Below, in pieces: positions 19,315 to 62,484 of a stretch of 64,000 bases of DNA (position 1 is its first letter; the number at the start of each line of letters is the position of its first letter). Position numbers and translations under genes: made by a program. The notes beneath the pieces were generated by a model. The model ran no database searches and was not told the origin of the DNA. It saw only the letters and a program-made list of their open reading frames with translations. The stretch is from assembly GCA_040222015.1 (NCBI GenBank), contig JAVJWO010000041.1:1-64000 (forward strand), in the 5' to 3' direction. Origin of the DNA: Coleofasciculus chthonoplastes F2-STO-03. Lineage in GTDB: Bacteria; Cyanobacteriota; Cyanobacteriia; Cyanobacteriales; Coleofasciculaceae.

Positions 19315-19350
19315 TTATAGTCCCGATTTATAAGATGCGTTGGTGTTCTC

Positions 19351-19621: not shown

Positions 19622-19801
19622 ATAATCCCGATAATCCCGATAATCCCGATAATCCCAATAATCCCAATAATCCCAATAATCCCAATAATCCCGATAATCC
19701 CGATAATCCCGATAATCCCGATAATCCCGATAATCCCGATAATCCCGATAATCCCAATAATCCCAATAATCCCGATAATCCCGATAATCCCAATAATCCC
19801 G
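19622..19801. repeat. 9-bp tandem repeat (ATAATCCCR) x20
   Basis: Direct reading; G and A variants occur in blocks. Confidence 0.95.
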
Positions 19802-19845
19802 ACAAAGGTAACTAAACCCGCCCTTGTTGGACACCATTTTAAGGC

Positions 19846-43028: not shown

Positions 43029-43178
43029 TGCAATACTGCAAGGGATAGGAAGATGGGGAAGATGAGGGAGATGGGGAAGATGGGGAGATAGGAGACAAAA
43101 TTTCTATAGCCTATTATCCTGTTCCCTATTCCCTGTTCCCTGTTCCCTAACAAATGACGAATGACAAATGACAAATGA

Positions 43179-43913: not shown

Positions 43914-44384
43914 AATCAGTTTGTTGCTTATCCTCCCATCAAATTAACACTTAGGAGACTATCTGATCCGGACAATGGACGCTAGCCTCGGATTGAGCTT
44001 GAGCAAGCGGCGGCGAAAAATGAGAAGAGACGCGATACTTCGCGCCTCTGAAATCTATCTCTACTGGAATTGTCTAACTAGATGGCTCTTTTGACCCAGC
44101 GATCTGGGTAGAAGCCAAGTGGTGTGAAGGGGCATTCCCATTACCCTTGAGTCCACTTGTCTGTTACTTCTGTTATAAGAGAAAATCTGTAAAGATAGTA
44201 ACAACTTGAGTCGATCCATTGTAAAGATTTCAACAAGATTATCATTGGTCTTATGGTCTTTGTCCTTGGTCATCGGTATGTCCTGCCTCATTCTCATACT
44301 CAATCGGGGTTAACTAATTATCTGGATGCGATCGCGCTACGAATGTTAAATTAGGGCTGTTCTCGCTTATCCTTAAACCCAGAC

Positions 44385-45614
44385 ATGCTCAAACCTGAAC
44401 TTCTCGCCCCAGCGAAGAATCTGGAACGGTTAAAAGTCGCCATTGCTTATGGTGCAGATGCGGTATATCTAGGGGGACAAAACTATGGATTGCGGGCGCG
44501 TGCGGATAATTTTACGGATTCTGAGTTAGCCCACGGTGTAGCATTTGCCCATCACCATGATGCCAAAATTTACGTCACGCTGAACGCCTTTCTCCACGAT
44601 GCAGACTTTCAGGGACTCCCCGACTATTGCCAGTTTCTGGAATCTATTGGCGTTGATGGGGTAATTGTTTCCGATTTAGGCGTTATCCGAGTGGTTAAAA
44701 CGAGTTCAAATCTCCATATTCACCTTTCCACTCAAGCCTCTTGTCTCAATTCCTACAGCGCCCGTTTGTGGAAAGACATGGGAGTCAAGCGCTTAATTGT
44801 TGGTCGAGAACTCAGTATTACTGAAGCGGGTTTAATTGGAGCAAAATCCGGTATTGACGTGGAGATGTTTACCCACGGTGCAATGTGTATGGCGTATTCG
44901 GGTCATTGCACAATCTCTAATTTTACCGCAGGTCGCGACTCTAATCGGGGCGGATGTATCCAATCCTGTCGATTACCCTATCACTTACAACGTCAGGAGC
45001 AGCAAGCTGATGATTTAGTCAGCTTCATGTCGTCCAGAGATTTGTGGGGAATTTATCAGATTAGCGAGTTTTTTAGCCATAATATTTGCTCGCTAAAAAT
45101 AGAAGGACGGATGAAATCATCGTTCTATGTCGCCCTAACCTGTAAGGTTTATCGCCAATTAATTGATGCTTATGCTGCTGGGAGATTAGATGAACAGTTA
45201 CTCAGCCAAGCCGCAGCCGAACTGCAATCAATTCCTAACCGAGACTATTTTTCCGGTTCCTTAGAAACACCAGCCGATAAAGATTCAGTCTTTGGACAGT
45301 TATCGGGAATTAATACAGGAACCCACTCTTATTTAGGCATGGTTATGGATACAACGCCGCAAGAGATTATTTTACGGTTACTTGAACCGTTAGCCGTCGG
45401 GGATGAAATTGAAATTATCCCGTTTCAAGACAAACCGATACGCTGGCAAGTTAATCAGCTTTTTTCGATGACAGGTGAACGCTTAGAGTCGATGCGAAAG
45501 GACAGTCTTGTGCGCTTACCCAAACCGGATGACTCCGTGCGATCGCACAATATCACCAAATTAAATGTCGTTCGATTCACCCATTCCCCTGTAACCGTTG
45601 CTAGTAAAGTCTGA
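44385..45614 (+). CDS. trhP: Peptidase U32 family Fe-S protein, TrhP/TrhP2-like tRNA U34 hydroxylase
   Basis: PELLAPA, YGADAVYLGG, HLSTQA, RELS, HGAMCMAYSGHCTISNFTAGRDSNRGGCIQSCR (exact CX6CX15CX3C), SLKIEGRMK. Confidence 0.88.
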   Translation: MLKPELLAPAKNLERLKVAIAYGADAVYLGGQNYGLRARADNFTDSELAHGVAFAHHHDAKIYVTLNAFLHDADFQGLPDYCQFLESIGVDGVIVSDLGVIRVVKTSSNLHIHLSTQASCLNSYSARLWKDMGVKRLIVGRELSITEAGLIGAKSGIDVEMFTHGAMCMAYSGHCTISNFTAGRDSNRGGCIQSCRLPYHLQRQEQQADDLVSFMSSRDLWGIYQISEFFSHNICSLKIEGRMKSSFYVALTCKVYRQLIDAYAAGRLDEQLLSQAAAELQSIPNRDYFSGSLETPADKDSVFGQLSGINTGTHSYLGMVMDTTPQEIILRLLEPLAVGDEIEIIPFQDKPIRWQVNQLFSMTGERLESMRKDSLVRLPKPDDSVRSHNITKLNVVRFTHSPVTVASKV

Positions 45615-45646
45615 ACTAGGAATTCCCTGTTCCCTGAGAAATAACA

Positions 45647-46855
45647 ATGCAATTTAATACCTTCATTTCATCAATTAAAAATTTAGAACGCTGTGTTAAT
45701 GCGCCCCATCTACATGAAGTATTATTAGAACCGATAGTATTAGCGCGACAGGGACAATTATCAAAAGCGAAGGTACATGATTTAGCCAAAAAAGCGTGGA
45801 AAAAACAACTACGCCCGGTACTCGTCTGGGATGTGTTAATGCCAGAACGGGTAATGAGAACCCTTTGTGATCAGCTAAAGGATTGGCAACTCAGTCTTTT
45901 TGGTGCAATTCGTGTGTGTGATCCGGGCGCGGCTTATTGGCTGAAAACCCATTTTCCTCAGATACCTATCCAGTTAATTGTTGAGACAGGAAATCACAAT
46001 CTGGAGGCGTTGCAAGGATGGTGCGAGATTTTTTCGGATTCCTTGGAACGGTTAGTCTTATCGATTGAACTACCGGAAGAAAAGCTAATTGAATATTGCC
46101 AAACCTTACCCGTTCCCTGTGAATTGCTAGGTGTGGGACCCATTCTGTTATTTTACTCGCCGCGATCGCTCTTGATAAACCCGTTGCTGGAACGCCAGAA
46201 TATAGAAGCAACAGAAGACATCGATTCGCTATACCGATTCAACCCCGACTCCCCTCTCTACCTAGAAGCGACGGCGGCTTTTGCGGATAACCCTAATCGC
46301 CATTTTCCGACATTAGAAACTGCTCATGGAACGTTTATGTTTTTAGACAAATATCAGTTTATCCTGGATCAGTTAGATGGCTTACGTGAGGCGGGTTTAC
46401 ATACCGTGCGATTGGACTTACGACATCTGATTCAGGAGGACAATGTTGCTATTGATATTGATGAAATTTGTCGCCAGGTGTTAGAAAATCCGGCAAAAAT
46501 ACGGGAAACTTGGTTCCGAGAAACACGCGCTCCTTTTTTCAAAGCGAATCGTACTACCGCCTTGTTTACCCGGATGAAATCAAAACTATCTGAATACCGG
46601 AATGATGCCTGTCTAGCGGAAGTTATGGCTGGAGAAAGTGGCAAATATGTGGTTTTTTACACCTGGCGTTCCTTCGAGATTTCCCAGATTCAAGGTATGG
46701 TTTTACCCACGGGTGAAGAAATTGTTCCCCAAGACGTTATTTTTCGTACCATAAACGGCAAACCTGTTGATACCTTTGAACCGGAACAAATTTTAGTGAC
46801 TAATTGGATCAAAAAAGCTGTTCCGGGTTCTCTGCTGCTGGGTAAAATGTCTTGA
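45647..46855 (+). CDS. Second, divergent U32-family protein lacking the Cys motif (TrhP1/YrrN-like partner)
   Basis: RLVLSIEL, LFYSPRSLL, ETAHGTFMF, LDGLREAGLHTVRLD; 32 bp downstream of the first U32 gene. Confidence 0.7.
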   Translation: MQFNTFISSIKNLERCVNAPHLHEVLLEPIVLARQGQLSKAKVHDLAKKAWKKQLRPVLVWDVLMPERVMRTLCDQLKDWQLSLFGAIRVCDPGAAYWLKTHFPQIPIQLIVETGNHNLEALQGWCEIFSDSLERLVLSIELPEEKLIEYCQTLPVPCELLGVGPILLFYSPRSLLINPLLERQNIEATEDIDSLYRFNPDSPLYLEATAAFADNPNRHFPTLETAHGTFMFLDKYQFILDQLDGLREAGLHTVRLDLRHLIQEDNVAIDIDEICRQVLENPAKIRETWFRETRAPFFKANRTTALFTRMKSKLSEYRNDACLAEVMAGESGKYVVFYTWRSFEISQIQGMVLPTGEEIVPQDVIFRTINGKPVDTFEPEQILVTNWIKKAVPGSLLLGKMS

Positions 46856-47076
46856 TTAATTCAGACATGTAGGGGCGGGTTTGACAGATAACAGTTTGCC
46901 ACCAACCGATAACTTAACTAAACCCGCCCTTATAGAGTGCGATACCTTGATAAGGGCGCAAGCCTTGCGCCCCTACGTTAGGGTGTACTTCATCTGGGTC
47001 ATATTTACTAAAAAGATACTAATTTCTACTAAATTAGTAGGTTAAGATGTCAGCTATTCATAATCAACGACTGAGA

Positions 47077-47787
47077 ATGTCTAATCCATACTTTCGCTTC
47101 AAGCAATTCACCGTCTTTCACGATCGCTGTGCGATGAAGGTGGGAACGGATGGTACACTGTTAGGAGTATGGACGGATATCACAGGCGTGCAAAGCATTC
47201 TGGATATTGGCACAGGAACGGGTTTGGTTGCACTCATGTTGGCACAGCGATCGCAGGCGCACATTGATGCGGTGGAAATTGACGCAGAGGCTGGCATTCA
47301 GGCGCGGGAGAATGTGGAGAAATCACCGTGGCGCGATCGCATTCAGGTGTATCAGGGTTCTGTGCAAGATTATGCCACGACTTGCTCAAAGCGGTACGAT
47401 CTGATTGTGTCTAATCCTCCCTTTTTTGACAATGCCAGTAAAGCGTCACAAAAGGCGAGAACCGTAGCACGACATAGTGATTCTTTGAAGCAATTGGATC
47501 TATTACAAGTGGCGGAACAGCTTTTGGGTGAGAATGGCAGGCTAGCTGTAATTTACCCCACTGAGTCAGCCCAAATATTCCAAGAAAAAGCCGAATTATT
47601 TAGTTTATTTTTCCACAGGAAACTCTCTGTTAAACCGACCTTAGCCAGTCAAACTAAACGAATTATACTGGAACTGGGGAAACATCAGTTATCCTCTCAG
47701 GAAAACATCCTTACGATAGAAGCCACCAGACGGGTTTATACCCCTGAATTTATTAGCTTGATTAAAGAATTTTACCTGAAATATTAA
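47077..47787 (+). CDS. yfiC: tRNA1(Val) adenine-37 N6-methyltransferase (YfiC/TrmM/TrmN6)
   Basis: FRFKQFTVFHDRCAMKVGTDGTLLG, LDIGTGTG, IVSNPPFF, ARH, YTPEF...FYLKY; ATG 47077 preferred over 47047. Confidence 0.92.
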   Translation: MSNPYFRFKQFTVFHDRCAMKVGTDGTLLGVWTDITGVQSILDIGTGTGLVALMLAQRSQAHIDAVEIDAEAGIQARENVEKSPWRDRIQVYQGSVQDYATTCSKRYDLIVSNPPFFDNASKASQKARTVARHSDSLKQLDLLQVAEQLLGENGRLAVIYPTESAQIFQEKAELFSLFFHRKLSVKPTLASQTKRIILELGKHQLSSQENILTIEATRRVYTPEFISLIKEFYLKY

Positions 47788-47993
47788 TTTAAATATCTAT
47801 ATTTGGGATTATAAGTTAATTTGTATAACCATAGACATAAGCCTGAATGCTCTGGAAGTTAACTTCGTAGGTTGGGTTGAGGAACGAAACCCAACTAGAA
47901 CATACGAGCTGAAACCATAGTGAAGCTCGTTGCCAAGATTGAGTCTAACTTTAGGCTGATGAGAATCCTGCAAATACTAATCAAACTAGAGAT

Positions 47994-48293
47994 ATGTGGA
48001 ATAATCAAAATCCCCCAGAATTCGAGCATGACGGTGTTCCCCATCCCCACCATCCCCAACGAGATGGGGCAGATGAAAAATCTCCAGACACTGAACAGGA
48101 AAGCCTTGACCCTAATCTATCGCCAGAGCATATAAAAGCGACAACAAAATCGTTGAAGCGTATCTATATTACTCTCCTGATTATGGGTTTACTTTTAGGA
48201 GGAGTGGTATCTGTAGGGGTTGTCATCGCCCTCGATCGCATGGGATTGACAGATGCCCCAGCAGATGTGGAAGAGACTGAAATGCCGTATTAA
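47994..48293 (+). CDS. Small membrane-anchored hypothetical protein
   Basis: 99 aa; acidic/Pro N-terminus then one TM helix (IYITLLIMGLLLGGVVSVGVVIAL). Confidence 0.7.
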   Translation: MWNNQNPPEFEHDGVPHPHHPQRDGADEKSPDTEQESLDPNLSPEHIKATTKSLKRIYITLLIMGLLLGGVVSVGVVIALDRMGLTDAPADVEETEMPY

Positions 48294-48440
48294 GCCGAAT
48301 GGCGCTGAAAAGCGTGCATTTTTGGGTCGCCGAAACCCTTGATATACCGTAGGGTGGGCATTGCCCACCAGCCCAAATTTCAGTACTATTCCTATTAAGC
48401 CTGCCGCGCCTCGAATTGGATAGTTGTGCGATCGGTTAGT

Positions 48441-48788
48441 GGTGAGGAGGGCGGGTTTTGTTGTTCCGTTTTCGGTGAGGAGGGCGGGTTTTGTTGTTCC
48501 GTTTTCGGTGAGGAGCTGAATTTAGTCCCTAAACCCGCCCCTACGATTGTCCCTAAACCCGCCCCTACGATTGTCCCTAAACCCGCCCCTACGATTGTCC
48601 CTAAACCCGCCCCTACAATTGTTACTAAACCCGCCCCTACAATTGTTACTAAACCCGCCCCTACAATTGTTACTAAACCCGCCCCTACAATTGTTACTAA
48701 ACCCGCCCCTACAATTGTTGCTAAATCTGCCCCTACAATTGTTGCTAAATCTGCCCCTACAATTGTTGCTAAATCTGCCCCTACAATT
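48441..48788. repeat. Composite tandem array: 2x33-bp plus 11x24-bp REP-derived units directly upstream of cmoA
   Basis: GGTGAGGAGGGCGGGTTTTGTTGTTCCGTTTTC x2, then GT(CC/TA/TG)CTAAA(C/T)C(C/T)GCCCCTAC(G/A)ATT x11 (48525-48788). Confidence 0.92.
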
Positions 48789-48793
48789 GACTG

Positions 48794-49567
48794 ATGAATT
48801 ACGACAAACTCGATCCAGAACTTGAGCATACAAAACTTTATCTGAGTCCTGAAAAAGATGAACTCTTTGAAAAAGGAGTGTGGCCCAAGCCGTTTGTCTT
48901 TAACCAGGATGTTGTCAATGTTTTCGATAATATGATATCCCGTTCCGTTCCGCTGTACCAAGAGGTGCTAACCTGTGCCGCTCATTGGGCGAGAGAGTAT
49001 TATCAACCGGGAACACGGATTATTGATGTGGGCTGTTCTACGGGAACATTTCTGGAATTAGTGGGGCGTTTCTTAAAGCAAAAGGCTACACTCGTGGGGA
49101 TTGATAATTCTCAACCCATGCTAGAGAAAGCCAAGCAAAAATTACTTACAATCAAACAGATTCATCAAATTGAATTCATTTGTGACAAGGCAGAAAACTC
49201 TTCCTTTGAGAATAGTAGCGTTGTTGTGATTAACTACACCCTACAATTTTTGCCGCTACAGGTGCGTCAACTCTTGCTCCGAACTATCTACGAGGGATTG
49301 GTTCCAGGTGGCTTACTCTTCGTAAGCGAAAAAGTAAAGTCACCCTATCCTCAATTTCAAGAGACAATCACCCGACACTACGAAGCCTTTAAAGCTCATA
49401 ATGGTTATGCCCGTACTGAAATCGAACGGAAAAAGGAGGCGCTAGAGAATGTTTTAGTGCCGTTAACGGAAGCCCAGCAAGTGCAAATGTTGTATGATAG
49501 TGGTTTTAATAGAGTGGATTCACTAATTAAATTACATAACTTTATTTCCTGGGTGGCTCTTAAGTAA
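48794..49567 (+). CDS. cmoA: Carboxy-S-adenosyl-L-methionine synthase
   Basis: FVFNQDVVNVFDNMISRSVPLY, DVGCSTG, IDNSQPM, NYTLQF, SEK, FK..NGY...EI..KK.ALENVL, NF.S.VALK. Confidence 0.92.
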   Translation: MNYDKLDPELEHTKLYLSPEKDELFEKGVWPKPFVFNQDVVNVFDNMISRSVPLYQEVLTCAAHWAREYYQPGTRIIDVGCSTGTFLELVGRFLKQKATLVGIDNSQPMLEKAKQKLLTIKQIHQIEFICDKAENSSFENSSVVVINYTLQFLPLQVRQLLLRTIYEGLVPGGLLFVSEKVKSPYPQFQETITRHYEAFKAHNGYARTEIERKKEALENVLVPLTEAQQVQMLYDSGFNRVDSLIKLHNFISWVALK

Positions 49568-49590
49568 GAGGTGATTTATACGCCCATAAA

Positions 49591-49726
49591 CTAATAAGCT
49601 GTCATGCATTTAAATTTGGTATTAGTAGCGAGCAAGATGCAAAGCCTGCGGCATGGCTTCGCTTAACGCACTACCATCCTTGCGCCATTATTGACATTAA
49701 GGTTTAAATGCCGAACAGCTTAGTAG
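49591..49726. mobile_element. MITE-like element with imperfect 24-bp terminal inverted repeats
   Basis: CTAATAAGCTGTCATGCATTTAAA ... TTTAAATGCCGAACAGCTTAGTAG; one end recurs at 15365-15395. Confidence 0.65.
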
Positions 49727-49876
49727 GCTTGACATCAAATAAACTAGACGTTAATTTAGACTTTAGCTATAACTGAACAGTTGATTCCGATTTAGCCAGA
49801 CGCTCCCCTGGGAGCAACCATGATGCCATTGGGAACCTGATTTGTCTCATCGGTTCTATTCCGGAAAACTCTGAAC

Positions 49877-52800
49877 ATGGCTCAACTTGAAGACCTCACT
49901 CGTGGTGCAACTGTTAAAGGTATCTTACCCAATCACCATGTCACTGTCATTGACGCCAAGTGGCACGGCAGTGATGTGATTGAATTAACCTATAAAGATG
50001 CTAGTGGACAACCTCATACCGAACTCCTCTTTCGAGACCGAGAGCCGACATTAGATATCGTCACGGAAGGGCAACCTTGGAGTTTTGACGGTGATGGCGC
50101 ATTACTTCGACTCGTCTCAGAAGCCCATCGCATTCGGCTAGCTCATCTATTTGACCCACTGCTGGCTGTCCATACCTCCCTCGTCGAACCCCTCCCTCAC
50201 CAGATCACAGCCGTCTATGGGGAGATGCTCACCCGTCAGCCGCTGCGGTTCCTCTTAGCGGATGATCCGGGGGCGGGGAAAACGATTATGGCAGGGTTAT
50301 TTATCCGGGAGTTGCTGATTCGGGGGGATTTGCAACGCTGTCTGATTGTCTGTCCGGGGAGTCTGGCGGTACAGTGGCAAGATGAACTGTTTCACAAGTT
50401 TCATCTGCCCTTTGAGATTTTAACGAATGACCGCATCGAAGCGGCTCGCACGGGGAATGCTTTTGCCGAAATGTCGTTGGTTATCGTCCGGCTGGATAAG
50501 CTGAGCCGGAATGAGGATTTGCAAGCTAAGCTTGGTCAAACGGATTGGGATTTGGTGGTGGTGGATGAGGCGCATAAGATGTCAGCCTCGTTTTTTGGGG
50601 GAGAAATTAAGGAAACCAAGCGCTACAAGTTGGGTAAGCTGCTTTCAACGCTGACTCGTCACTTCCTGCTGATGACAGCGACTCCCCATAATGGTAAGGA
50701 AGAGGACTTTCAGCTTTTCTTGATGCTACTGGATGGCGATCGCTTTGAAGGGCGTTTCCGGGATGGGGTGCATGCTTGTGATACCTCGGACATGATTCGT
50801 CGCTTGGTTAAGGAAGATTTACTCAAGTTTGATGGCAAGCCTCTGTTTCCAGAACGTCTGGCACATACCGCCCAGTATTTGCTGTCTGATTTGGAAGCGG
50901 TTCTCTATAAGCAGGTGACGGATTATGTGCGAGAGGAATTCAATCGGGCTGAAGCCCTTGCCAATAATGGACGCAAAGGCACCGTTGGCTTTGCCTTGAC
51001 TATATTGCAACGTCGCCTTGCATCCTCCCCCGAAGCAATTTATCAGTCCCTGCAACGGCGGCGGGAGCGGTTACAGAAACGTCTGCGAGACGAGAAAATG
51101 CGATCGCGCGGATTGAGTTTGGAATTGGAATTTGGACTGACTATCGATTTGGAAGACTGGGACGATGATTTTGAGGAGTCTTCTACTGAGGAGCGGGAAA
51201 CGACGGAGGAAGAGGTCATTGATCTGGCGACAGCCGCTCGCACTATTACTGAACTGCAAGCCGAAATCGATCACTTGGGCGAACTGGAAAATCTAGCGCT
51301 GCGGGTGAGGCGCAGTGGCAAGGATCGTAAATGGGAGGAGCTATCGAAACTCCTGCAAGATCAGGCAGAAATGTTTGATGCTGGAGGTTATCGGCGTAAG
51401 CTGGTGATTTTTACTGAGCATCGAGATACGTTAAACTATTTGACGGAGCGCATCGGCACCCTGTTAGGTCGTCCTGAAGCCATTGTTACAATTCATGGCG
51501 GTATGAGTCGAGACTCTCGTAAACAGGCAGAAGAAGCCTTTAAGCAAGATCCAACCGTCGAAGTCTTGATTGCTACAGATGCAGCAGGTGAAGGGATTAA
51601 CCTGCAACGGGCGCATTTGATGGTGAACTATGACCTGCCTTGGAATCCCAATCGTCTGGAGCAGCGCTTTGGGCGGATTCACCGGATTGGGCAAACGGAA
51701 GTCTGTCACCTCTGGAATCTGGTGGCTGGGGAAACCCGCGAGGGGGATGTGTATCTGGCGCTGTTGCAGAAACTGGAAAAGGAGCAAAACGCGCTCGGCG
51801 GTAAGGTTTTCGATGTCTTGGGGAAAGCGATCGCGGGGAAGGAATTGCGGGAACTGCTGATCGAAGCAATTCGTTATGGCGATCGCGAGGATATCAAAGC
51901 GAAGCTTAACCAGGTGGTTGCCGATCGCCTCGATCAAGGGCGGCTACGGGAATTGCTAGAAGAACGTGCCTTGGCGCGAGACTCTATGGATGCGACGAAG
52001 GTGCAGCAAATCCGAGAGGACATGGAACGGGCAGAGGCGCGGAAACTTCAGCCCCATTTTATTGCTTCCTTTTTCTTGGCAGCTTTTCAGCGTTTGGGGG
52101 GTACGATTCGCCAACGGGAACCCAAGCGCTATGAGATTACCCATGTTCCGGCGGTGATTCGTAATCGCGATCGACAGATTAGCATAGGTGATCCGATTCT
52201 GCGGCGCTATGAGCGGGTTTGCTTTGAGAAGGAACTGATTAGCGTTCCTGGAAAACCCCTGGCGGATTTCATCTGTCCGGGTCATCCCCTCCTGGATGCT
52301 ACCCTCGATCTGACCTTAGAACGCCACCGTGATTTGCTGCGACAAGGAGCCATTTTAGTGGATCAAAATGATCCGGGTGAAGCGGTACGTGCTTTGGTTT
52401 ACTTGGAGCATTCCATCCAAGATGCTCGCACAGAACGGGAAGGTCGGCGTCGGGTTGTTTCTCGCCGGATGCAGTATGTAGAAATTGACACCACCGGACA
52501 GGCTAAGGGGGCAGGTTATGCTCCCTATCTCGACTATCGACCCCTAGAGGAAGCCGAAAAACCCCTCGTGGAATCGGTTCTGGGTTCTGTAGGGCTTCGA
52601 GATGAGATTGAAAGTCAAGCCACCAGCTATGCCATTGCCAACTTGGTTACTCCCCATCTCCAGGAGGTGGGGGAACGTAAACAGGAGTTAATTGAAAAGA
52701 CGGTTCGGGCGGTTAAGGATCGGCTAACTAAGGAAATTAACTATTGGGATCAACGGGCGGCAGATTTGCGGTTACAGGAACAAGCAGGTAAGCCCAATGC

Positions 52801-53446: not shown

Positions 53447-54048
53447 GTTATCGAGAATTCACCTGGTCCAAGGCGAAGCAAGATTTTGGCTTAAAGACGA
53501 TTGAGGGCGATCGCTTTTTTCCGGTTCTCCCGGAAGTGCAACCCAGTTCCCTCTTGCAGGAAATGCTTCAGCGTAATATTCCTTGGGCGATCGCGGTTGG
53601 TAATGAAAAAGCTCGTTCTGAAGCGATTATTAATCCGATTCTGTTGGAGGTTCAGCAAGTCTTAGAGCGGAAAATCAGCGTTTTTTCAGGAGAAGAGTTC
53701 AATGTAGACCCCAAAGCTGGACTCAATGGCATCTGTGATTTTTTAATCAGTCAATCACCCGAGCAAATTGTGGTGGAAGCCCCGGTTTTGGTCGTGGTGG
53801 AAGCGAAAAAAGACGACTTGAAGCGAGGGATGGGACAGTGTTTGGCTGAGATGGTGGCAGCGCAGCGCTTTAACCGGGCGAATCAACAAGCAATTCCCAC
53901 GATTTATGGCAGTGTCACGACAGGAACGGCTTGGCGGTTTCTTAAGTTGGAGGACAGTATAGTAACAGTGGATTTGACGGATTATCCGGTTCCCCCGGTT
54001 GAACAGGTACTCAGTATTTTAGTCTGGATAGCCAATAACACCCGATGA
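53443..54048 (+). CDS. PD-(D/E)XK restriction-endonuclease-like protein (cyanobacterial HsdR_N/Uma2-like family)
   Basis: NEKARSEAIINPIL, GLNGICDFL, VVEAKK, GQCLAEM.AAQ.FN, GSVTTG..W.FL; ATGA overlaps with both neighbours. Confidence 0.82.
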   Translation: MSYREFTWSKAKQDFGLKTIEGDRFFPVLPEVQPSSLLQEMLQRNIPWAIAVGNEKARSEAIINPILLEVQQVLERKISVFSGEEFNVDPKAGLNGICDFLISQSPEQIVVEAPVLVVVEAKKDDLKRGMGQCLAEMVAAQRFNRANQQAIPTIYGSVTTGTAWRFLKLEDSIVTVDLTDYPVPPVEQVLSILVWIANNTR

Positions 54049-56939
54049 GAAAGAAGCTGATTGAAGTTGCCCTGCCTCTAGAAGCCATTAATGCAGAATC
54101 GGCTCGTGAAAAGTCGATTCGCCATGGGCATCCCTCAACGCTGCATCTGTGGTGGGCGAGACGACCATTGGCAGCTTGTCGAGCCGTGTTATGGGCGTCT
54201 TTGGTCGATGATCCGTCCAGTTGGGCGGATAGGTTTCCCACAGAAGAAGACCAGAAGCGGGAACGGCAGCGACTCTTTGATATTTTAGGGCGAATTACTA
54301 TCGAAACCGATAAAAAGGGGAATCAAAAGCAAGTGGTGCGCGGTTTGGTGTCCTGGGATGATATCAAAGAACCGGCAATCATTGACGAGGCACAAAAGGA
54401 AATTGCCCGATGTTTGGCGTGGGAACGGGGGGAAGAACCGCCAACGAAGCCAGAGGCGGTACGGGATTATATTGCTAAATATGCGCCGCCTGTCTATGAC
54501 CCTTTTGCTGGGGGTGGCTCGATTCCTTTGGAGGCGCAGCGCTTGGGATTAGAAGCTCATGCGAGTGATTTGAATCCGGTGGCGGTGTTGATTAATAAGG
54601 CATTAATTGAGATTCCGCCTAAGTTTAAAGATTTATCGCCTATTAATCCAGAAAATCGCCAGAAAAAGGGGATGAATGTTTGGAAAGGGGCGCAAGGATT
54701 GGCGGCGGATGTGCGCTTTTATGGGCAATGGATGCGGGATGAGGCGTTTAAGCGGATTGGGAATTTGTACCCGAAGGTGGAGTTACCAAAGGAGTATGGG
54801 GGAGGAAAAGCAACAGTAATCGCATGGTTGTGGGCAAGAACGGTGAAGTGTCCGAACCCGGCTTGTGGCTGTCAAATGCCTTTGGTGCGGAGTTTTCAGC
54901 TTTCGACGAAGAAGGGGAAAGAGGCTTGGGTTGAACCGCAAATTGACCGAGAGCAGACGCCGCCAGCGATTCGGTTTGAGGTGAAAACTGGGAAGGGAGA
55001 AGTTCCAGAAGGAACGGTGAGCCGCAAAGGTGCAGGGTGTATTGCTTGTGAAACGCCTGTGCCGTTTGACCATATTCGCAGTGAGGGCAAGGCGGGGCGG
55101 ATGAGTCAGCAGTTGATGGCGATTGTAGCTGAAGGGCAAAGTGGGCGGGTTTATCTTGCTCCTACTGAGGAACATGAAAAAATTGCCAATTCTGCTCAAC
55201 CCGAATGGAAACCAGATACCGATTTACCAGAACAAGCATTAGGTTTTCGAGTCCAGCTTTACGGTATGGTTAAACACGCCAATCTCTTCACCGATCGCCA
55301 ACTTGTTGCTCTAACCACCTTCAGCGATTTAGTCAGTGAGGCAAGGGAAAAGGCGACGCAAGATGCTATCTCTGCGGGTCTGTCTGATGATGATGTGCCG
55401 CTGAATGATGGCGGGACTGGGGCAAGAGCGTATGGAGATGCGATCGCAACTTATTTAGGATTGGGATTAAGTCGATTAAGTGATATTTGTAATGCTCTAT
55501 GCAGATGGGAAATTTCAAAAACTCAAGTTCGTAATTTATTTGGTCGTCAAGCCATTCCAATGGTTTGGGATTTTGCTGAAAATAACTTATTTGCTAATGC
55601 AGCAGGTGATTTTGCAGTTAGTTTGGGAAGCTTATTAAAAGTTGTTGAACGAATCCAACCGGGAATTCTAGGGTCAGCAAAACAAAAGGATGCAATGACA
55701 TCACTATCAACTACTCAGCGTTTCATTATTTCATCTGATCCTCCTTACTACGACAATATTGGTTACGCTGACCTCTCCGATTTCTTCTACGTCTGGCTCC
55801 GTCGCTCGCTTCAATCCATTTACTCCGATCTTTTCAGTACGCTTCTTGTTCCAAAATCTCAAGAACTCGTCGCTACGCCCTACCGCTTTGACGGTGATAA
55901 ACAAAAAGCTCAAACATTTTTTGAAGAGGGATTAGGCAAAGCCTTTAACCTAATGCATGAAGTTTCTGACACAGCTTATCCAATAACGATTTATTATGCT
56001 TTTAAACAAGCAGAGGCAGAACAAAAAGGAAAAGCTGATGCATCAGTTGCTTCTACAGGTTGGGAAACTATGCTGGAAGGCTTGATGAAAGCTGATTTCA
56101 GTATTGGCGGAACCTGGCCCATGCGAAGTGAACTAAGTAACCGCATGGTTGCTGATGATACCAACGCCCTCGCCTCCTCTATCGTCCTCGTCTGCCGCCC
56201 CCGCCCCACCGACGCACCCAAAACCACCCGCCGCCAATTCCTCACCGAACTCAAACGCCAACTCCCCAAAGCCCTGAAAACCCTGCAACAAGGCAACATC
56301 GCCCCCGTAGACCTCGCCCAAGCCAGCATCGGACCCGGTATGGCAGTCTTCTCTCAATACGCCGCCGTTCTCGAAAACGACGGTTCCCCCATGCGGGTTC
56401 GCACCGCCCTACAACTGATCAACCAAATCCTCGACGAATATCTCACCGAACAAGAAGGCGCATTTGACAGCGATACCCGCTGGGCGCTCACCTGGTTCGA
56501 GCAGTATCAATTTAACCCAGGACAGTATGGTGATGCTGAAACCCTTTCCAAAGCCAAAAATACCAGTGTTAGTGGCATGGTTGATGCGGGAATCCTAGAA
56601 GCAAAGGGCGGCAAAGTTCGCCTGCTCAAACGTGAGGAGTTGAAGTCAGACTGGAATCCCAATAGCGATAGCCGGATGCCTGATTGGGAAGTCACCCAAT
56701 ACCTCATCCACGAACTCGACCAAAAAGGCGAGATGGGGGCGGCTGAAATGTTGGCGAAATTAGGCGAAAGAGGCGAAATTGCCAGGGATTTAGCCTATCG
56801 ACTCTATAGCTTGTGCGATAGAAAAGGTTGGGCAGCCGAGGGCATTGCCTACAACAGCCTGGTTATCTCTTGGCCCGAAATTACTCGCTTGGCAAGTGAG
56901 TTTCAATCTCGACCAATTCAAGGCGACTTAGGATTTTAG
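54045..56939 (+). CDS. DUF1156 adenine-specific DNA methyltransferase with Zn ribbon
   Basis: LHLWWARRPL, DPFAGGGSIPLE (motif I), CPNPAC...CIAC, SDPPYYDNI (motif IV), TWPMRSE. Confidence 0.93.
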   Translation: MRKKLIEVALPLEAINAESAREKSIRHGHPSTLHLWWARRPLAACRAVLWASLVDDPSSWADRFPTEEDQKRERQRLFDILGRITIETDKKGNQKQVVRGLVSWDDIKEPAIIDEAQKEIARCLAWERGEEPPTKPEAVRDYIAKYAPPVYDPFAGGGSIPLEAQRLGLEAHASDLNPVAVLINKALIEIPPKFKDLSPINPENRQKKGMNVWKGAQGLAADVRFYGQWMRDEAFKRIGNLYPKVELPKEYGGGKATVIAWLWARTVKCPNPACGCQMPLVRSFQLSTKKGKEAWVEPQIDREQTPPAIRFEVKTGKGEVPEGTVSRKGAGCIACETPVPFDHIRSEGKAGRMSQQLMAIVAEGQSGRVYLAPTEEHEKIANSAQPEWKPDTDLPEQALGFRVQLYGMVKHANLFTDRQLVALTTFSDLVSEAREKATQDAISAGLSDDDVPLNDGGTGARAYGDAIATYLGLGLSRLSDICNALCRWEISKTQVRNLFGRQAIPMVWDFAENNLFANAAGDFAVSLGSLLKVVERIQPGILGSAKQKDAMTSLSTTQRFIISSDPPYYDNIGYADLSDFFYVWLRRSLQSIYSDLFSTLLVPKSQELVATPYRFDGDKQKAQTFFEEGLGKAFNLMHEVSDTAYPITIYYAFKQAEAEQKGKADASVASTGWETMLEGLMKADFSIGGTWPMRSELSNRMVADDTNALASSIVLVCRPRPTDAPKTTRRQFLTELKRQLPKALKTLQQGNIAPVDLAQASIGPGMAVFSQYAAVLENDGSPMRVRTALQLINQILDEYLTEQEGAFDSDTRWALTWFEQYQFNPGQYGDAETLSKAKNTSVSGMVDAGILEAKGGKVRLLKREELKSDWNPNSDSRMPDWEVTQYLIHELDQKGEMGAAEMLAKLGERGEIARDLAYRLYSLCDRKGWAAEGIAYNSLVISWPEITRLASEFQSRPIQGDLGF

Positions 56940-57027
56940 GTTTGAATTTGGGAATTCTAGAGGTGAAAATTAATGAAAGTACAAATCTTTTTCCCACTCT
57001 TCGAGAAGGACAAAGCCCTACATCCCC

Positions 57028-57164
57028 CAGAGGGGAGCCGGAGTGAGAGTTCAGGACTTGAATCCCCCTCACCCCCAGCCCCTCTCCCACCAGAGGAGAG
57101 GGGAGCCGGAGTTTCTAGTTCCCCTTCTCCCTCGATGGGAGAAGGGGTTAGGGGAAGAGGGTGA
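57028..57164. repeat. CCCTCTCCC...GGGAGAGGG-type hairpin cluster
   Basis: CCCTCTCCCACCAGAGGAGAGGG and CCCCTTCTCCCTCGATGGGAGAAGGGG inverted repeats. Confidence 0.65.
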
Positions 57165-57175
57165 ACAGCCTAAAG

Positions 57176-57375
57176 GCTTACCAGTATTGGTTTTTGCGTA
57201 ATGAACTTAAAATTTATACCCTGCAATCCGGTCAATATCAGCAAGTTTCTACAAGTCCCACATTGCCAATCCTCAATTAGTCGCCGAGGTACTTGAACAA
57301 AGTATCACCATTGGCAGAAGTCCCGCCTTACGAGCCTTTCGTCAGACCATTCAAACCCAAAAATCCCAACTCTAG
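57176..57375 (+). pseudogene. Frameshifted C-terminal fragment of a Uma2/DUF820 endonuclease
   Basis: AYQYWFLRNELKIYTLQSGQYQQVSTSPT, frameshift, then ANPQLVAEVLEQSITIGRSPALRAFRQTIQ-stop; resembles the Uma2 C-terminus. Confidence 0.65.
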
Positions 57376-57398
57376 CTGAAACCCCAAAACATAATAAC

Positions 57399-60300
57399 AT
57401 GGCAATTAGTAACCACGAACGAGTCGGTAGAGCCTTAAACTTACTGCGAGATGGACTCTATCCCTTCATTGAGCGAGAGATGAAAGCCAACTTTGGCGAG
57501 CGGTGGTTGAGTGCTGCCTCTGCTTGTCTTCCCGACCATTACGTGGCGCGTCGTGAGGTGAAAGATGTCCTCAAGGAAGATGTTTCTGCCTTACTGATGG
57601 TGATGTGGGAACAGTGGAATAACGTCTTCCGCAATACCCTGGGACGCTCCGAACGCAGCATCGTCAGCGAACTACGGGATACCCGTAACGACTGGGCGCA
57701 TACTAGCACCTTCTCCACCGATGACGCTTACCGCGCCCTCGACAGCATGGCTCGCCTCCTCTGTGCCATCTCAGCCACTGAAGCCGATCAAGTCGAAAAG
57801 CAGAAACAAGAACTCTTGCGGGTTCGCTTTGAAGGTCAAGCCCGTCGGGAAACTCGCCGTGCGGCTGTGGCTCCCACTGTCGGACAGCCGATGTCAGGAT
57901 TAAAACCCTGGCGCGAAATTACCACCCCTCACCCCGATGTCGCCTCAGGGCGCTACCAACAAGCTGAATTTGCCGCTGACCTGTGGCAAGTTTACCTGGA
58001 TGAAGGCTCCGATGAATACCGTGACCCCACAGAATTCTTCCGGCGTACCTACCTGACCGAGGGACTCAAGCAACTCCTGAGCGGGGCATTACTGCGCCTG
58101 AGTGGAAAAGGCGGCGATCCGGTGATTGAACTGCAAACCAACTTTGGTGGCGGTAAAACCCACGCCATGCTAGCACTGTATCATTTGTGCAATGCCTTAG
58201 CGATCGCGGATCTCCCTGGCATGGAACCCATCTTCCAAGAGACTAGCTTGACCAAACCCCCCCAAAACGTCAACGTCGCCGTCCTTGTGGGGAATAAACT
58301 CCAGCCCAGCGGTATCGCCCCCTACAAACCCGAACACAAGAGCCAAAACCGTCCTTTGATCAAAACCCTCTGGGGTGAATTAGCGTGGCAACTCGGCGGG
58401 TTAAAGGGCTATGAAATCGTTCGTAATGCCGATGAAACCTCCACCAATCCGGGTGATGCCCTCAAGGTACTCTTCAACCGCTTTTCCCCCTGTTTGATTC
58501 TGATCGATGAATGGGTTGCCTATGCTCGACAATTACACGACCGCAGCGATATTGCTGGTGGCAGTTTCGACACCCAATTCACCTTTGCTCAAACCCTGAG
58601 CGAGTCGGCTAAAAACGCCAAGCAGACTTTACTCGTTGTCAGTATTCCATCCTCTGATATTGAAATCGGAGGAGAGAGAGGCAAAGAAGCCCTTGATCGC
58701 CTCAAGAATGCGATCGGTCGCGTCGAGTCCCCTTGGCGACCCGCCAGCGCTGAAGAAAGCTTTGAGATCGTGCGACGGCGGCTGTTTCAGATCGCGGCTG
58801 ACCCCAACCTCTTTGTCCAACGGGATGCTGTGATCCGGGCTTTCTCAGAAATGTACCGCACTCAGAGACAGGAGTTTCCCGCTGAATGCAAAGAAGGCGA
58901 CTATGAGCGACGGATGCGAGACGCCTATCCGATTCATCCCGAACTCTTTGATCGCCTCTACTCCGACTGGTCTAGTCTGGATAAATTCCAGCGTACCCGT
59001 GGCGTGCTGCGCCTGATGGCAAAAGTGATTCACTCCCTCTGGGAACGCAACGACCAAAGCCTAATGATTATGCCAGCCCACGTCCCCATGGACGACTCCC
59101 AGGTGCAGTCCGAACTAACCCGCTACCTGGACGATAACTGGATTCCCGTTATTGATAAAGACGTAGACGGCCCGAACTCCCTACCCCTGGCGCTAGACCG
59201 ACAGAACCCCAATCTAGGGCGTTACTCTGCCTGTCGCCGAGTGACTCGCTCGATTTACATGGGTTCTGCCCCCACTCTACGAGCAGCCAATCGCGGACTG
59301 GAAGACCGCAGAATCAAACTCGCTTGCGTCCAGCCTGGAGAAACCGCCGCCACCTTTGGCGATGCCCTGCGCCGTCTCACCGACCAAGCCACCTACCTCT
59401 ACATCGACGGTAACCGCTACTGGGTTTCAACCCAACCCAATGTCAACCGCACCGCCCAAGAACGAGCTAATCAATACCAGAGCGATCGTTACAAGGTTTG
59501 GGAAGAAATCATCAAACGACTAAAAAATGATAAGTCGCGCAATGAGTTCAGTGCCGTCCATATTGCCCCGGAATCAACCGCAGATATTCCCGATGACCCC
59601 AGTTTGGGAGTGCGTCTTGTCGTGCTTGCTCCCCAGCATCCCTACAGCCGTCTCAGCGACGATACCTCCGCTCGCCAATGGATTGAAGATGCCCTAAACC
59701 ACAAAGGAAGCAGTCCTCGCTACTACAAAAATACCCTGCTTTTCCTGGCTCCAGACAAAGCCAAAATTGAGAACCTAGAGCGGAATGTCGCTCAATACCT
59801 CGCCTGGGAGTCGATTCTCGCTGACGACAAGAAGAAAACCCTGAATCTCGATAACTTTCAGCGGAGTCAGGCAGAAACGAAAAGGGATGGAACGAACAAA
59901 GATGTTGATAATATTCTCAACGATACCTATCAATGGCTCTTAGTGCCGATGCAACCGGATGCCCAAGGCGGTATCGAATGGAAGGAAACGCGGCTGCAAG
60001 GTCAAGACTCACCGATCGCGCGAGCAAGCAAAAAAGCTGTCCATGAAGGCGATCTCCTTGACAATTACGCCGCGACAAACCTACGCCTAGAAGCCCTAGA
60101 TAAGTTCCTCTGGCGAGAAACCAACCATATCGACTTGAAGCGCCTCTGGGAGTACCTCACCCAATACCTTTACCTGCCGCGATTGAAAGACCAAAATGTC
60201 CTCCTCGAAGCCATCCGCAATGGCGTTACATCAACGATTTGGGCGGATAACTTCGCCTATGCTGAGGGATTTGACGAAGAAACGGGAAAATATCTCGGTT

Positions 60301-60761
60301 TGCTAGCGGGAACGGGAATAACGCCTAGAATTAGTCCGCAAAGCTTGCTCGTCAAACCAGACATTGCCCAACGACAGTTCGACGCCGAACAAGCTCCGAC
60401 ATCTACAACCCCTAGTGGAAAAGGAGTGACAACAACGGGGACAGAATCGGGTGATAGCTCGCCCTCTGGTGATGAAGGAACGATTGGTAGCTCCGGCGAT
60501 GGATCGGGAGGGAGCCAAACTCCTGTACTCCGGCGGTTCTATGGTAACGTTGAAATTGACGCCATGCGGGTGAATCGAGACGCTCCCGCGATCGCGAACG
60601 AGGTAATCCAGCACCTAACCGCTTTGCACGGTGCAAAAGTCAAACTCACCCTCGAAATTGAAGCAGAAATTCCTGAAGGGGTGCCTGATGATGTCGCCCG
60701 TACCGTCATGGAGAACTGTCGGACACTTAAGTTCAACAGCCAATCTTTTGAGCAAGAGTAA
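57399..60761 (+). CDS. DUF499 AAA+ ATPase with N-terminal Swt1-like HEPN domain
   Basis: ELRDTRNDWAH (RX4H), KPWREI..PHPDV..G.YQQAEFAADL, TNFGGGKTH, LILIDEW, YPIHPELF, FQRTRGVLRLMA. Confidence 0.92.
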   Translation: MAISNHERVGRALNLLRDGLYPFIEREMKANFGERWLSAASACLPDHYVARREVKDVLKEDVSALLMVMWEQWNNVFRNTLGRSERSIVSELRDTRNDWAHTSTFSTDDAYRALDSMARLLCAISATEADQVEKQKQELLRVRFEGQARRETRRAAVAPTVGQPMSGLKPWREITTPHPDVASGRYQQAEFAADLWQVYLDEGSDEYRDPTEFFRRTYLTEGLKQLLSGALLRLSGKGGDPVIELQTNFGGGKTHAMLALYHLCNALAIADLPGMEPIFQETSLTKPPQNVNVAVLVGNKLQPSGIAPYKPEHKSQNRPLIKTLWGELAWQLGGLKGYEIVRNADETSTNPGDALKVLFNRFSPCLILIDEWVAYARQLHDRSDIAGGSFDTQFTFAQTLSESAKNAKQTLLVVSIPSSDIEIGGERGKEALDRLKNAIGRVESPWRPASAEESFEIVRRRLFQIAADPNLFVQRDAVIRAFSEMYRTQRQEFPAECKEGDYERRMRDAYPIHPELFDRLYSDWSSLDKFQRTRGVLRLMAKVIHSLWERNDQSLMIMPAHVPMDDSQVQSELTRYLDDNWIPVIDKDVDGPNSLPLALDRQNPNLGRYSACRRVTRSIYMGSAPTLRAANRGLEDRRIKLACVQPGETAATFGDALRRLTDQATYLYIDGNRYWVSTQPNVNRTAQERANQYQSDRYKVWEEIIKRLKNDKSRNEFSAVHIAPESTADIPDDPSLGVRLVVLAPQHPYSRLSDDTSARQWIEDALNHKGSSPRYYKNTLLFLAPDKAKIENLERNVAQYLAWESILADDKKKTLNLDNFQRSQAETKRDGTNKDVDNILNDTYQWLLVPMQPDAQGGIEWKETRLQGQDSPIARASKKAVHEGDLLDNYAATNLRLEALDKFLWRETNHIDLKRLWEYLTQYLYLPRLKDQNVLLEAIRNGVTSTIWADNFAYAEGFDEETGKYLGLLAGTGITPRISPQSLLVKPDIAQRQFDAEQAPTSTTPSGKGVTTTGTESGDSSPSGDEGTIGSSGDGSGGSQTPVLRRFYGNVEIDAMRVNRDAPAIANEVIQHLTALHGAKVKLTLEIEAEIPEGVPDDVARTVMENCRTLKFNSQSFEQE

Positions 60762-60774
60762 CGGATGACCACTC

Positions 60775-61764
60775 ATGACAAATCCTGATCAAACGATTGG
60801 TTATATACCCCCTGATTATCTAGAGTTCTACCCCGAAACGTTAGCACGAGAGGAAATTTTATCAGTACGTCAAGAGCGACAATCTAAATTATTTACCCCT
60901 CAAATGAGTCAGTACCGAGAAGCGGTGCAGGCGGTTCAGGACATCCAAAGTGATTGGTATGACTTCTCTGATGCTGTCGTCAAAGTGGGTCGTGCTGAGG
61001 AACTCACCGCCGCACAAAAACAGCGATTTTATCACTCGTTGCAAGCCTTTTGCCCTTGGAAAAAAGGACCCTTTGAACTGTTTGGGATTACCATTGATGC
61101 AGAGTGGCGTTCTGACTGGAAATGGGCGCGAATTTTGCCCCATATCCATTCGCTGAAAAATCGCCGGGTGGCTGATATTGGCTGTCACAATGGTTATTTT
61201 ATGTTTCGCATGGCGGATCAGGAACCGGACTGTGTAATTGGGTTTGAGCCAGTTCCTAAGCACTTTTGGAACTTTCAGCTTATCCAAAATATTGTTCAGC
61301 AACCGATGCTGACGTTTGAGTTATTGGGGGTTGAGCATATCGATTTTTATCCGAATTTCTTTGATACAATTTTTTGTCTAGGAATTCTTTACCATCATCG
61401 AGATCCGATTAATTTATTGAGCAAACTGCGACAAGCGCTAGCACCAAAAGGTGAAATTATTATTGATTGTCAAGGAATTCCTGGGGAACTTCCTGTGGCG
61501 TTAACTCCCCGTAAGCGCTATGCTCAAGCACGCGGAATTTGGTTTTTACCCACCCAATCTTGTTTAGAGAATTGGCTAGTACGGGCTGGCTTTAGTCAGA
61601 TTCACTGTTTCTTTGCTGAACCTTTGTCCGTGCAGGAACAACGCCGCACGCCTTGGGCAAATATCGATAGTTTACGCGAGTTTCTGAATCCTGATGATTT
61701 ATCGGTAACGATAGAAGGGTATCCCGCACCCTGGCGCTATTATGTAATTGCTCATAAAAGTTAA
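60775..61764 (+). CDS. cmoB: tRNA U34 carboxymethyltransferase
   Basis: PWKKGPF, IDAEWRSDWKW, DIGCHNGY, GILYHHRDP, RYAQ, TIEGYPAP.R. Confidence 0.95.
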   Translation: MTNPDQTIGYIPPDYLEFYPETLAREEILSVRQERQSKLFTPQMSQYREAVQAVQDIQSDWYDFSDAVVKVGRAEELTAAQKQRFYHSLQAFCPWKKGPFELFGITIDAEWRSDWKWARILPHIHSLKNRRVADIGCHNGYFMFRMADQEPDCVIGFEPVPKHFWNFQLIQNIVQQPMLTFELLGVEHIDFYPNFFDTIFCLGILYHHRDPINLLSKLRQALAPKGEIIIDCQGIPGELPVALTPRKRYAQARGIWFLPTQSCLENWLVRAGFSQIHCFFAEPLSVQEQRRTPWANIDSLREFLNPDDLSVTIEGYPAPWRYYVIAHKS

Positions 61765-61849
61765 ATGGAATTTTATGGGTTTTTATGAACATTAAACCAA
61801 AACTACAACTAAAAATTTAGCACACCAACTACGGAATAATCCATTTCTC

Positions 61850-62362: not shown

Positions 62363-62484
62363 AAGAGTTTAAAGGGGTAAACTAAAGCCATTCGAGTTCC
62401 TTTTTGCCTCTCTTTGAGCAGGGGAGGGTTAATGACAAAGGACAAATGACAAATGACTAATGACTAATGACTAATGACTAATGA

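Follow-up and report, generated by a model that had tools for sequence, protein, structure and literature searches.

The window analysed here, 64,000 nucleotides of contig JAVJWO010000041.1 from the mat-forming cyanobacterium Coleofasciculus chthonoplastes F2-STO-03 (assembly GCA_040222015.1), carries five co-oriented genes in the order trhP1-trhP2-trmN-cmoA...cmoB. We consider them, with a probability of roughly 0.8, to be a native transfer RNA (tRNA) modification module of Coleofasciculus that acts on wobble uridine 34 to give a 5-oxyuridine derivative (xo5U34). This reading is built on gene content, sequence motifs, synteny, co-inheritance, the lack of a match to the hydroxylase TrhO and a predicted protein dimer. 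The cluster is real, it is already catalogued and it is inherited within the lineage; it is not a new cassette. The original prediction, made from the nucleotide sequence alone, had placed five co-oriented genes of this pathway in the window, and the list of open reading frames (ORFs) and the family scans agree with it on their positions and orientation. All coordinates are those of the window unless another contig or locus is named; the genome measures 7.72 Mb and is 99.99% complete.

In the proposed pathway, TrhP1, which bears a four-cysteine [4Fe-4S] motif, would form a heterodimer with the motif-less TrhP2. The heterodimer would hydroxylate U34 to 5-hydroxyuridine (ho5U) in the UNN-anticodon tRNAs for Ala, Leu(UAG), Pro, Ser(UGA), Thr and Val, in an O2-independent reaction with prephenate as the reagent. 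CmoA would convert prephenate and S-adenosylmethionine (SAM) into carboxy-SAM, CmoB would move the carboxymethyl group onto ho5U, yielding uridine 5-oxyacetic acid (cmo5U34), and TrmN would methylate A37 of tRNA-Val(UAC). The chemistry of each step, and which nucleoside results, are inferred by analogy with Escherichia coli and Bacillus subtilis. As a functional reading of the sequences, prephenate-dependent ho5U34, cmo5U34 and N6-methyladenosine 37 (m6A37) on tRNA-Val appears well supported. The earlier assignment of ho5U, cmo5U and m6A37, with a two-subunit TrhP, is supported by family scores, published orthologue classes, co-inheritance, the predicted dimer, the lack of TrhO and the A37 of tRNA-Val(UAC).

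The first two genes of the cluster are the only two U32 genes of the genome. In a Pfam scan, both products exceeded the cut-off for Peptidase_U32 (PF01136, 22.4 bits), the first at 233.3 bits and the second at 47.9 bits. The motif C168-X6-C175-X15-C191-X3-C195 can be read from the TrhP1 translation, and the intact CX6CX15CX3C previously claimed for this protein does not vary across the aligned homologues (21 of 21), those of Bdellovibrionota type among them. The companion claim that the second U32 protein is Cys-less is correct in that CX6CX15CX3C is missing and incorrect in that eight cysteines are present, so that 'motif-less' is the better description. The motif was found in all 15 TrhP1 cluster members, in none of 150 TrhP2 family representatives and in none of 120 close TrhP2 homologues. 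Five cysteines of TrhP2 are invariant in close cyanobacterial homologues and were considered as an alternative Fe-S site; this candidate was rejected, none of them being invariant when Bdellovibrionota-type homologues were aligned. BLASTP detected no significant similarity between TrhP1 and TrhP2 (best E 0.64), and the kinship of the two proteins is therefore seen through the Pfam profile only.

Naming of the pair follows Sakai et al. 2019 (PMC6599085), in whose accessible portions YrrO of B. subtilis is TrhP1, with a U32 domain and a C-terminal motif, and YrrN is TrhP2, with the U32 domain only. The 90%-identity clusters of the window's U32 proteins hold the UniRef entries B4VZ99 (first protein) and B4VZ98 (second protein) of C. 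chthonoplastes PCC 7420, which are given as TrhP1 and TrhP2, respectively, in the available part of Supplementary Data 1 of that paper. It follows from this listing that the order is trhP1-trhP2 and that the labels of the original prediction, trhP2-trhP1, were swapped: in the published nomenclature, TrhP1 is the name of the gene with the motif and TrhP2 that of the gene without it. Placement in the subfamilies (PepU32#5/#3) is indirect, through members of the same 90% clusters in the published tree. TrhP2 belongs to a large family: a search of 1.84 billion representatives gave 1774 relatives at E ≤ 0.001, and 424 clusters (50% identity) at E ≤ 1e-30. The ten spaced matches to the TrhP2 profile that were examined are metagenomic proteins. 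An Atlas search with TrhP2 retrieved generic U32 clusters only, commonest in Myxococcota and Bdellovibrionota, and serves as a lead only.

Structure prediction supports a TrhP1-TrhP2 heterodimer with the Fe-S motif on one subunit alone. With a 21-row alignment per chain, the modelled complex reached an interface score (ipSAE) of 0.90 in three runs, against 0.00 for the best of three controls. The calibration of this score, which is approximate for user-made alignments, has solved complexes reaching the mark in 116 of 157 cases and mismatched pairs in 2 of 215. The runs gave 243-249 contacts and agreed on at least 90% of them, and the predicted local distance difference test (pLDDT) value of the partner was at least 84 (85-86 over the three runs). 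The predicted interface includes residues 169-195 of TrhP1, which is the region of the cysteine motif, and residues 114-121 and 166-180 of TrhP2. A sequence search of the PDB with both chains (the TrhP1 sequence and the TrhP2 alignment) found no relative.

CmoB exceeds both of its cut-offs, with 362.2 bits against 209 for NF011650 and 357.7 bits against 275 for TIGR00452, and also matches PF08003 at 329 bits. CmoA exceeds the cut-off of TIGR00740 (203.4 versus 193.3 bits), and the genome contains one over-cut-off match for each of the two proteins. The TrmN candidate gives a full-length match to NF047853, in which protein residues 11-246 align with positions 7-244 of the 244-position profile. 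Public trmN homologues have 236 amino acids (aa) and are named tRNA1(Val) (adenine(37)-N6)-methyltransferase. From the family match beginning at residue 11 and the 236-aa homologues, the true start of trmN is likely to be at 47077, which would give a protein of 236 aa. CmoA, CmoB and TrmN of Coleofasciculus already carry these names at NCBI, the last again as tRNA1(Val) (adenine(37)-N6)-methyltransferase.

The TrhO domain PF17773 had no match in the 99.99%-complete genome, in a search for which E. coli, B. subtilis and Synechococcus elongatus served as controls and were all positive. None of the nine genomes of the genus gave a TrhO match. Because no TrhO was found, ho5U for CmoB has no other evident source, and the U32 pair is apparently the sole route to ho5U here. 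Genes for all six UNN tRNAs that bear cmo5U in E. coli are present, and the loop of tRNA-Val(UAC) reads CU-UAC-AA, with A37 in place.

A survey of loci through an alignment of TrhP2 homologues yielded 78 loci from named genome records, 62 of them titled cyanobacteria. Upstream sequence of 1.5 kb or more is available for 72 loci, and in 40 of these trhP1 lies directly 5' of trhP2. The full five-gene order, with conserved strand, was found in 15 of the 78 loci, over spans of 5.1-12.5 kb (12 of 58 when the count is limited to loci that extend 6 kb or more downstream), and in five named cyanobacterial families. The carriers are Coleofasciculus, Microseira, Aphanothece, Lyngbya (with PCC 8106 and L. 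aestuarii among its members), Capilliphycus, Limnoraphis and Arthrospira/Limnospira; two further five-gene loci are an Anaerolineae-labelled contig and an untitled record. In Floridaenema and Phormidium, cmoB-cmoA is encoded divergently upstream. The genes are dispersed in Okeania, Trichodesmium and Dapis, with the trhP pair separated or trhP1 beyond the locus. Two loci with bacterial labels from outside the phylum, an Anaerolineae-labelled metagenome-assembled genome with all five genes (L090) and a Chloroflexota-labelled one with four (L093), show 52-71% identity and branch just outside the cyanobacterial clade, which could reflect transfer or mis-binning.

Among 41 relatives, TrhP2 was detected in 11: this genome, all eight other species of the genus, one of 16 other genera of the family and one of 16 other families of the order. 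The TrhP2 of that single positive family carries an in-frame TAG. TrhO was detected in 23 of the same 41 genomes, both proteins in none and neither in seven; this exclusivity is a pattern and not a test, since the relatives are not independent. In an even sample of 401 genomes across the phylum, a strong TrhP2 match was obtained in five, and 30 other matches had E values of 1e-4 to 1e-6 and 22-38% identity. All five genomes with a strong match also encode CmoB. Of the 401 genomes, 17 have a CmoB above the cut-off, and their scores fall into two classes. The class at 361-366 bits, with matches starting at about model position 23-29, comprises exactly the five strong-TrhP2 genomes, and the class at 411-460 bits, with full-length matches, comprises three genomes of one genus (G025, G147 and G215) and nine of another family. 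The genomes of the latter class have no TrhP2 match apart from a weak one in G264, and G025, the one checked, has TrhO. These classes suggest two separate CmoB lineages in the phylum.

Much of this distribution was on record. Among the matches listed in the accessible portions of Sakai et al. 2019 (PMC6599085) are TrhP1 and TrhP2 for Coleofasciculus PCC 7420, Arthrospira NIES-39 and Trichodesmium IMS101, and TrhP2 for Lyngbya PCC 8106. The same portions state that both B. subtilis genes are required, that the orthologues always co-occur and that they are found in some Cyanobacteria. The available rows of their table give Trichodesmium TrhO 0, TrhP1 1, TrhP2 1, CmoA 1, CmoB 1 and TrmR 1; the other cyanobacteria looked up there have mostly TrhO 1 and TrmR 1, with TrmR only in Cyanothece PCC 7425 and neither in Gloeobacter and one Synechococcus sp. 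The accessible part of Kim et al. 2015 mentions that some Cyanobacteria have orthologues of CmoB. Novelty had been claimed for the combination; this does not survive the published TrhP1/TrhP2 of the genus, the joint TrhP1, TrhP2, CmoA and CmoB of Trichodesmium in Sakai et al. 2019 and the NCBI names for CmoA, CmoB and TrmN. Literature searches, to which one supplement of Sakai et al. in the form of a picture PDF was unsearchable, returned no account of the five-gene arrangement.

The history of the module was followed with a tree of concatenated TrhP1 and TrhP2 (52 rows, after exclusion of those in which one or the other protein was missing at 85% coverage or more) and one of CmoA and CmoB (25 rows). 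In the first, all rows titled as cyanobacteria form one clade with a Shimodaira-Hasegawa approximate likelihood ratio test (SH-aLRT) support of 99. Within it, Coleofasciculus is supported at 100, Microcoleaceae/Sirenicapillariaceae at 99 and Coleofasciculaceae/Aerosakkonemataceae/Aphanothece at 95. Family labels change 14 times on this tree against a mean of 24.4 with shuffled labels, a value as low being reached in none of 200 shuffles. The CmoA and CmoB tree recovers the same groups. Both trees are quick ones with several long branches, and the root comes from a long-branched outgroup. The five genes have a G+C content of 0.415-0.453, and the genome as a whole has 0.454. These results argue that the module is probably old in the lineage and that it moves as a unit, which other filamentous cyanobacteria have in common with it.

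The original prediction took the cluster for a horizontally acquired, self-contained cassette that expands decoding and is unusual for cyanobacteria. As a recent acquisition this is very unlikely: TrhP2 occurs in all eight other species of the genus, the gene order recurs, the trees of both protein pairs track taxonomy, with one cyanobacterial clade and clustered family labels, the G+C content is native-like and the gene combination had been published (Sakai et al. 2019, Kim et al. 2015). What speaks for transfer is the patchy spread (11 of 41 relatives, and a strong match in 5 of 401 phylum genomes), together with homologous U32 pairs in genomes labelled Bdellovibrionota, Myxococcota and Chloroflexota, three of five such genomes tested also having CmoB. 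On these grounds cyanobacteria may have received or donated the module in an ancient transfer. The converse, that the cluster is common and vertically inherited in cyanobacteria, applies to a subset of filamentous lineages and does not extend to the phylum, where it is rare (5/401). It is likewise very unlikely that the U32 pair acts on another substrate, such as C2501 of 23S ribosomal RNA (as RlhA does) or a prenylquinone (as UbiU/UbiV do), and that its adjacency to cmoA, cmoB and trmN is incidental. Both U32 proteins fall below all NCBIfam equivalog cut-offs, UbiU is the second-best model of TrhP1 at 150.3 bits and, according to the accessible portions of PMC10990095, no U32 hydroxylase activity has yet been reconstituted in vitro. 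However, the combination of DUF3656 with peptidase U32 occurs only in the subfamily of RlhA (Kimura et al. 2017), and the Pfam scan found no DUF3656 match in either protein; UbiU, at 150.3 bits where 440 are required, and UbiV, at 23.6 bits where 275 are, also fall far short of their cut-offs. CmoB requires ho5U in a genome where no TrhO was found, TrhP2 and TrhO exclude each other among the 41 relatives (11 and 23 genomes, overlap 0), TrhP2 and CmoB occur together in all five sampled genomes with a strong TrhP2 match, and the orthologues fall in TrhP1 and TrhP2 of the published tree, as far as its accessible part goes.

Several observations weigh against a native xo5U34 module as described above. 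The best NCBIfam model of TrhP1 is TrhP NF011996, at 261.7 bits against a cut-off of 534, and TrhP2 scores 28.7 bits; both miss this cut-off, which was made for the single-chain enzyme of E. coli type, and judged by sequence neither U32 protein is a single-chain TrhP. The U32 C-terminal domain (PF16325, cut-off 28.2 bits) is below threshold in TrhP1, at 23.3 bits, and was not detected in TrhP2. The proposed correspondence of TrhP2 to B. subtilis YrrN comes from the published tree alone. TrmN is below the cut-off of NF047853 (268.3 versus 350 bits), and CmoA is below that of the E. coli-centred NF011995 (140.4 versus 285 bits). GNN and CNN isoacceptors are kept in five of the six codon boxes, Val-CAC alone not being found, so that there is little sign of reliance on expanded wobble. 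In another Coleofasciculus species (locus L036), a Fic gene lies between trhP2 and trmN (11274-12608 of that locus), a glutathione S-transferase gene (14191-14838) and an ORF without assigned function lie between trmN and cmoA, and glycosyltransferase and FAD-oxidoreductase genes follow cmoA (18232-21205), with cmoB on another contig; insertions of unrelated genes are thus tolerated, and the cluster is not a strict operon. Literature searches found no measurement of cmo5U in any cyanobacterium, carriers of the cluster included. The genome also encodes an O-methyltransferase of the Methyltransf_3 family (192 bits, contig C95:44835-45401, minus strand), a possible TrmR, and the accessible part of Kim et al. 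2015 ascribes to CmoB a minor SAM-dependent methyltransfer activity; given this gene and the use of SAM by CmoB, the product could be partly 5-methoxyuridine (mo5U). The same two facts, with the TrmR that accompanies CmoA and CmoB in the available Trichodesmium row of Sakai et al., favour a pathway that is functional and yields chiefly mo5U, or the further methylated ester of cmo5U (mcmo5U). We regard that outcome as unlikely: CmoA is conserved and co-inherited with CmoB, arguing for the use of carboxy-SAM, and the Methyltransf_3 ORF has no NCBIfam match at E ≤ 1e-5.

A broader proposal can be attached to the native xo5U34 module. The module may have replaced the usual cyanobacterial, O2-dependent TrhO route in Coleofasciculus and allied filamentous lineages, where cmo5U34 and the m6A37 of tRNA-Val would be made solely by way of an O2-independent, prephenate-dependent U32 heterodimer with a single Fe-S cluster, and the linkage to an A37 methylase would mark tRNA-Val(UAC) as a key client. 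We advance this tentatively, at somewhat less than even odds.

Table 1. Positions of the module genes, the inserted defence system and the intervening features in the window.
Feature	Position	Strand	Description	Basis
trhP1	44385..45614	+	trhP1-type U32 protein, 409 aa	Pfam, motif, 90% cluster with B4VZ99
trhP2	45647..46855	+	trhP2-type U32 protein, 402 aa, motif-less	Pfam, 90% cluster with B4VZ98
trmN	47047..47787	+	trmN/yfiC-like, putative tRNA1(Val) A37-N6 methyltransferase, 246 aa	NF047853, NPPF motif
Small ORF	47994..48293	+	99 aa, family-less	stretch conserved in genus
24-nt tandem repeat	48529..48789		10.9 copies, 97% matches	directly 5' of cmoA
cmoA	48794..49567	+	predicted carboxy-SAM synthase, 257 aa	TIGR00740
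Hma insertion	49568..60774	+	inserted Hma anti-phage system	PADLOC, Pfam
hmaA	49877-53446	+	HmaA	PADLOC HmaA, 1709.7 bits
PD-(D/E)xK ORF	53443-54048	+	between hmaA and hmaB	Pfam
hmaB	54045-56939	+	HmaB	PADLOC HmaB, 1253.2 bits
hmaC	57399-60761	+	HmaC with N-terminal HEPN_Swt1	PADLOC HmaC, 1102 bits
cmoB	60775..61764	+	predicted tRNA ho5U34 carboxymethyltransferase, 329 aa	NF011650, TIGR00452

The two trhP genes are separated by a gap of 32 nt (Table 1). Between trmN and cmoA is a spacer of 1 kb that contains the small ORF and the tandem repeat. The small ORF had no match in Pfam, NCBIfam or PADLOC scans, and about 500 bp around it are 86-95% identical in five Coleofasciculus loci. The tandem repeat upstream of cmoA is accompanied by a 33-nt repeat of 2.3 copies within 48441-48789. 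Arrays related to these repeats are present on at least five other contigs of the genome, and their copy number varies in sister genomes. An Rfam scan of 43000-62500 detected no family. Promoter-like sites (11 versus a shuffle mean of 11.5) and terminator-like sites (6 versus 6.0) in 43900-50000 showed no excess over shuffled sequence. The five genes are covered by contigs, about 90-99% alike, that were assembled from one DNA run and three RNA libraries; such contigs are silent on transcription, its level and operon structure. Signalling genes stand on both flanks of the cluster. The product of 41172-43028, 618 aa long, combines receiver domains (three matched stretches) with an Hpt domain and a DNA-binding domain of OmpR type; at 61850-63993, on the opposite strand, are genes for a CheA-like kinase that has a receiver domain and for a CheW-like protein.

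The separation of cmoA from cmoB is secondary and is due to an Hma (helicase-methylase-ATPase) system, the only recent part of the cluster, in a strain-variable spacer. HmaA, HmaB and HmaC were each detected near full length (E = 0), on one strand and in that order, and the Hma genes, at 0.49-0.53, have a higher G+C content than the genome (0.454). The start of cmoB is 13 nt past the stop codon of hmaC. Within the genus, the spacer between cmoA and cmoB measures 86 bp in locus L038, about 1 kb in locus L035 and 11.2 kb in the window. The L035 spacer holds a 206-aa PD-(D/E)xK ORF (14603-15223 of that locus) and repeats, with no hmaA, hmaB or hmaC; its PD-(D/E)xK protein is 90% identical to the one embedded in the Hma system of the window. 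In the window, the native sequence upstream of cmoB that is common to L035 and L038 has been lost, the replacement reaching to about 14 nt from the ATG. Metagenome contigs that join 49583 to 53432, in the manner of L035, were also seen. The PD-(D/E)xK ORF may be either a remnant of an Hma system or a resident gene around which Hma assembled. In DNA run X1 the Hma genes were uncovered except for the PD-(D/E)xK ORF, which was not counted as absence. Summed contig depth was very high in all four runs at 49409-50009 (after cmoA) and at 56621-57221 (between hmaB and hmaC), and many contigs diverge into unlike sequence at 49594-49722. The high depth and the diverging contigs fit dispersed repeats at or near the edges of the inserted DNA.

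As a discovery the cluster carries little weight, the genes being annotated and the subfamily assignment in the genus having been published in 2019. The small additions made here are that TrhP2 and TrhO never coincide among the 41 relatives, the predicted heterodimer and the two CmoB score classes. Coleofasciculus offers a clean natural case for a two-subunit U32 hydroxylase and, as TrhO was not found, a knockout phenotype should not be hidden by a second pathway. The reading predicts an Fe-S cluster on one subunit only. The conserved five-gene arrangement links TrmN with the xo5U pathway, and the locus illustrates how a defence system can lodge among housekeeping genes of one cluster.

Set beside known systems, the insertion resembles PADLOC Hma in its three near full-length proteins; the embedded PD-(D/E)xK ORF and the N-terminal HEPN_Swt1 of hmaC may set it apart. 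The U32 pair resembles UbiU-UbiV, which in the accessible literature are likewise two U32 paralogues working jointly, with prephenate as the proposed oxygen donor and [4Fe-4S] chemistry. They differ in that UbiU and UbiV each carry a [4Fe-4S] cluster, whereas here the motif is in TrhP1 only and the genomic context is tRNA modification.

E. coli, with TrhP (YegQ), CmoA, CmoB and TrmN6 (YfiC), would share with Coleofasciculus the predicted chemistry, the target tRNAs and the A37 of tRNA-Val(UAC). The trhP, cmoA, cmoB and yfiC genes of E. coli are dispersed. Its TrhP is a single chain, whereas that of Coleofasciculus is a predicted heterodimer, TrhP1 and TrmN are below the E. coli-based equivalog cut-offs, and E. 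coli has TrhO, which was not found here. The likeness to TrhP1 (YrrO) and TrhP2 (YrrN) of B. subtilis is that of a tandem, co-occurring U32 pair, and possibly of a C-terminal motif in one member with the U32 domain only in the other, as described in the accessible portions of Sakai et al. 2019, who filed orthologues from the same genus, Coleofasciculus, in both subfamilies. Within their set, so far as it is accessible, 22 of 32 organisms with trhP1/trhP2 have TrhO, unlike the present genome, and the B. subtilis order is yrrN-yrrO, whereas in Coleofasciculus trhP1 precedes trhP2. The B. subtilis pair stands beside trmR (yrrM) and the Coleofasciculus pair beside cmoA, cmoB and trmN, and the predicted product is therefore cmo5U and not mo5U.

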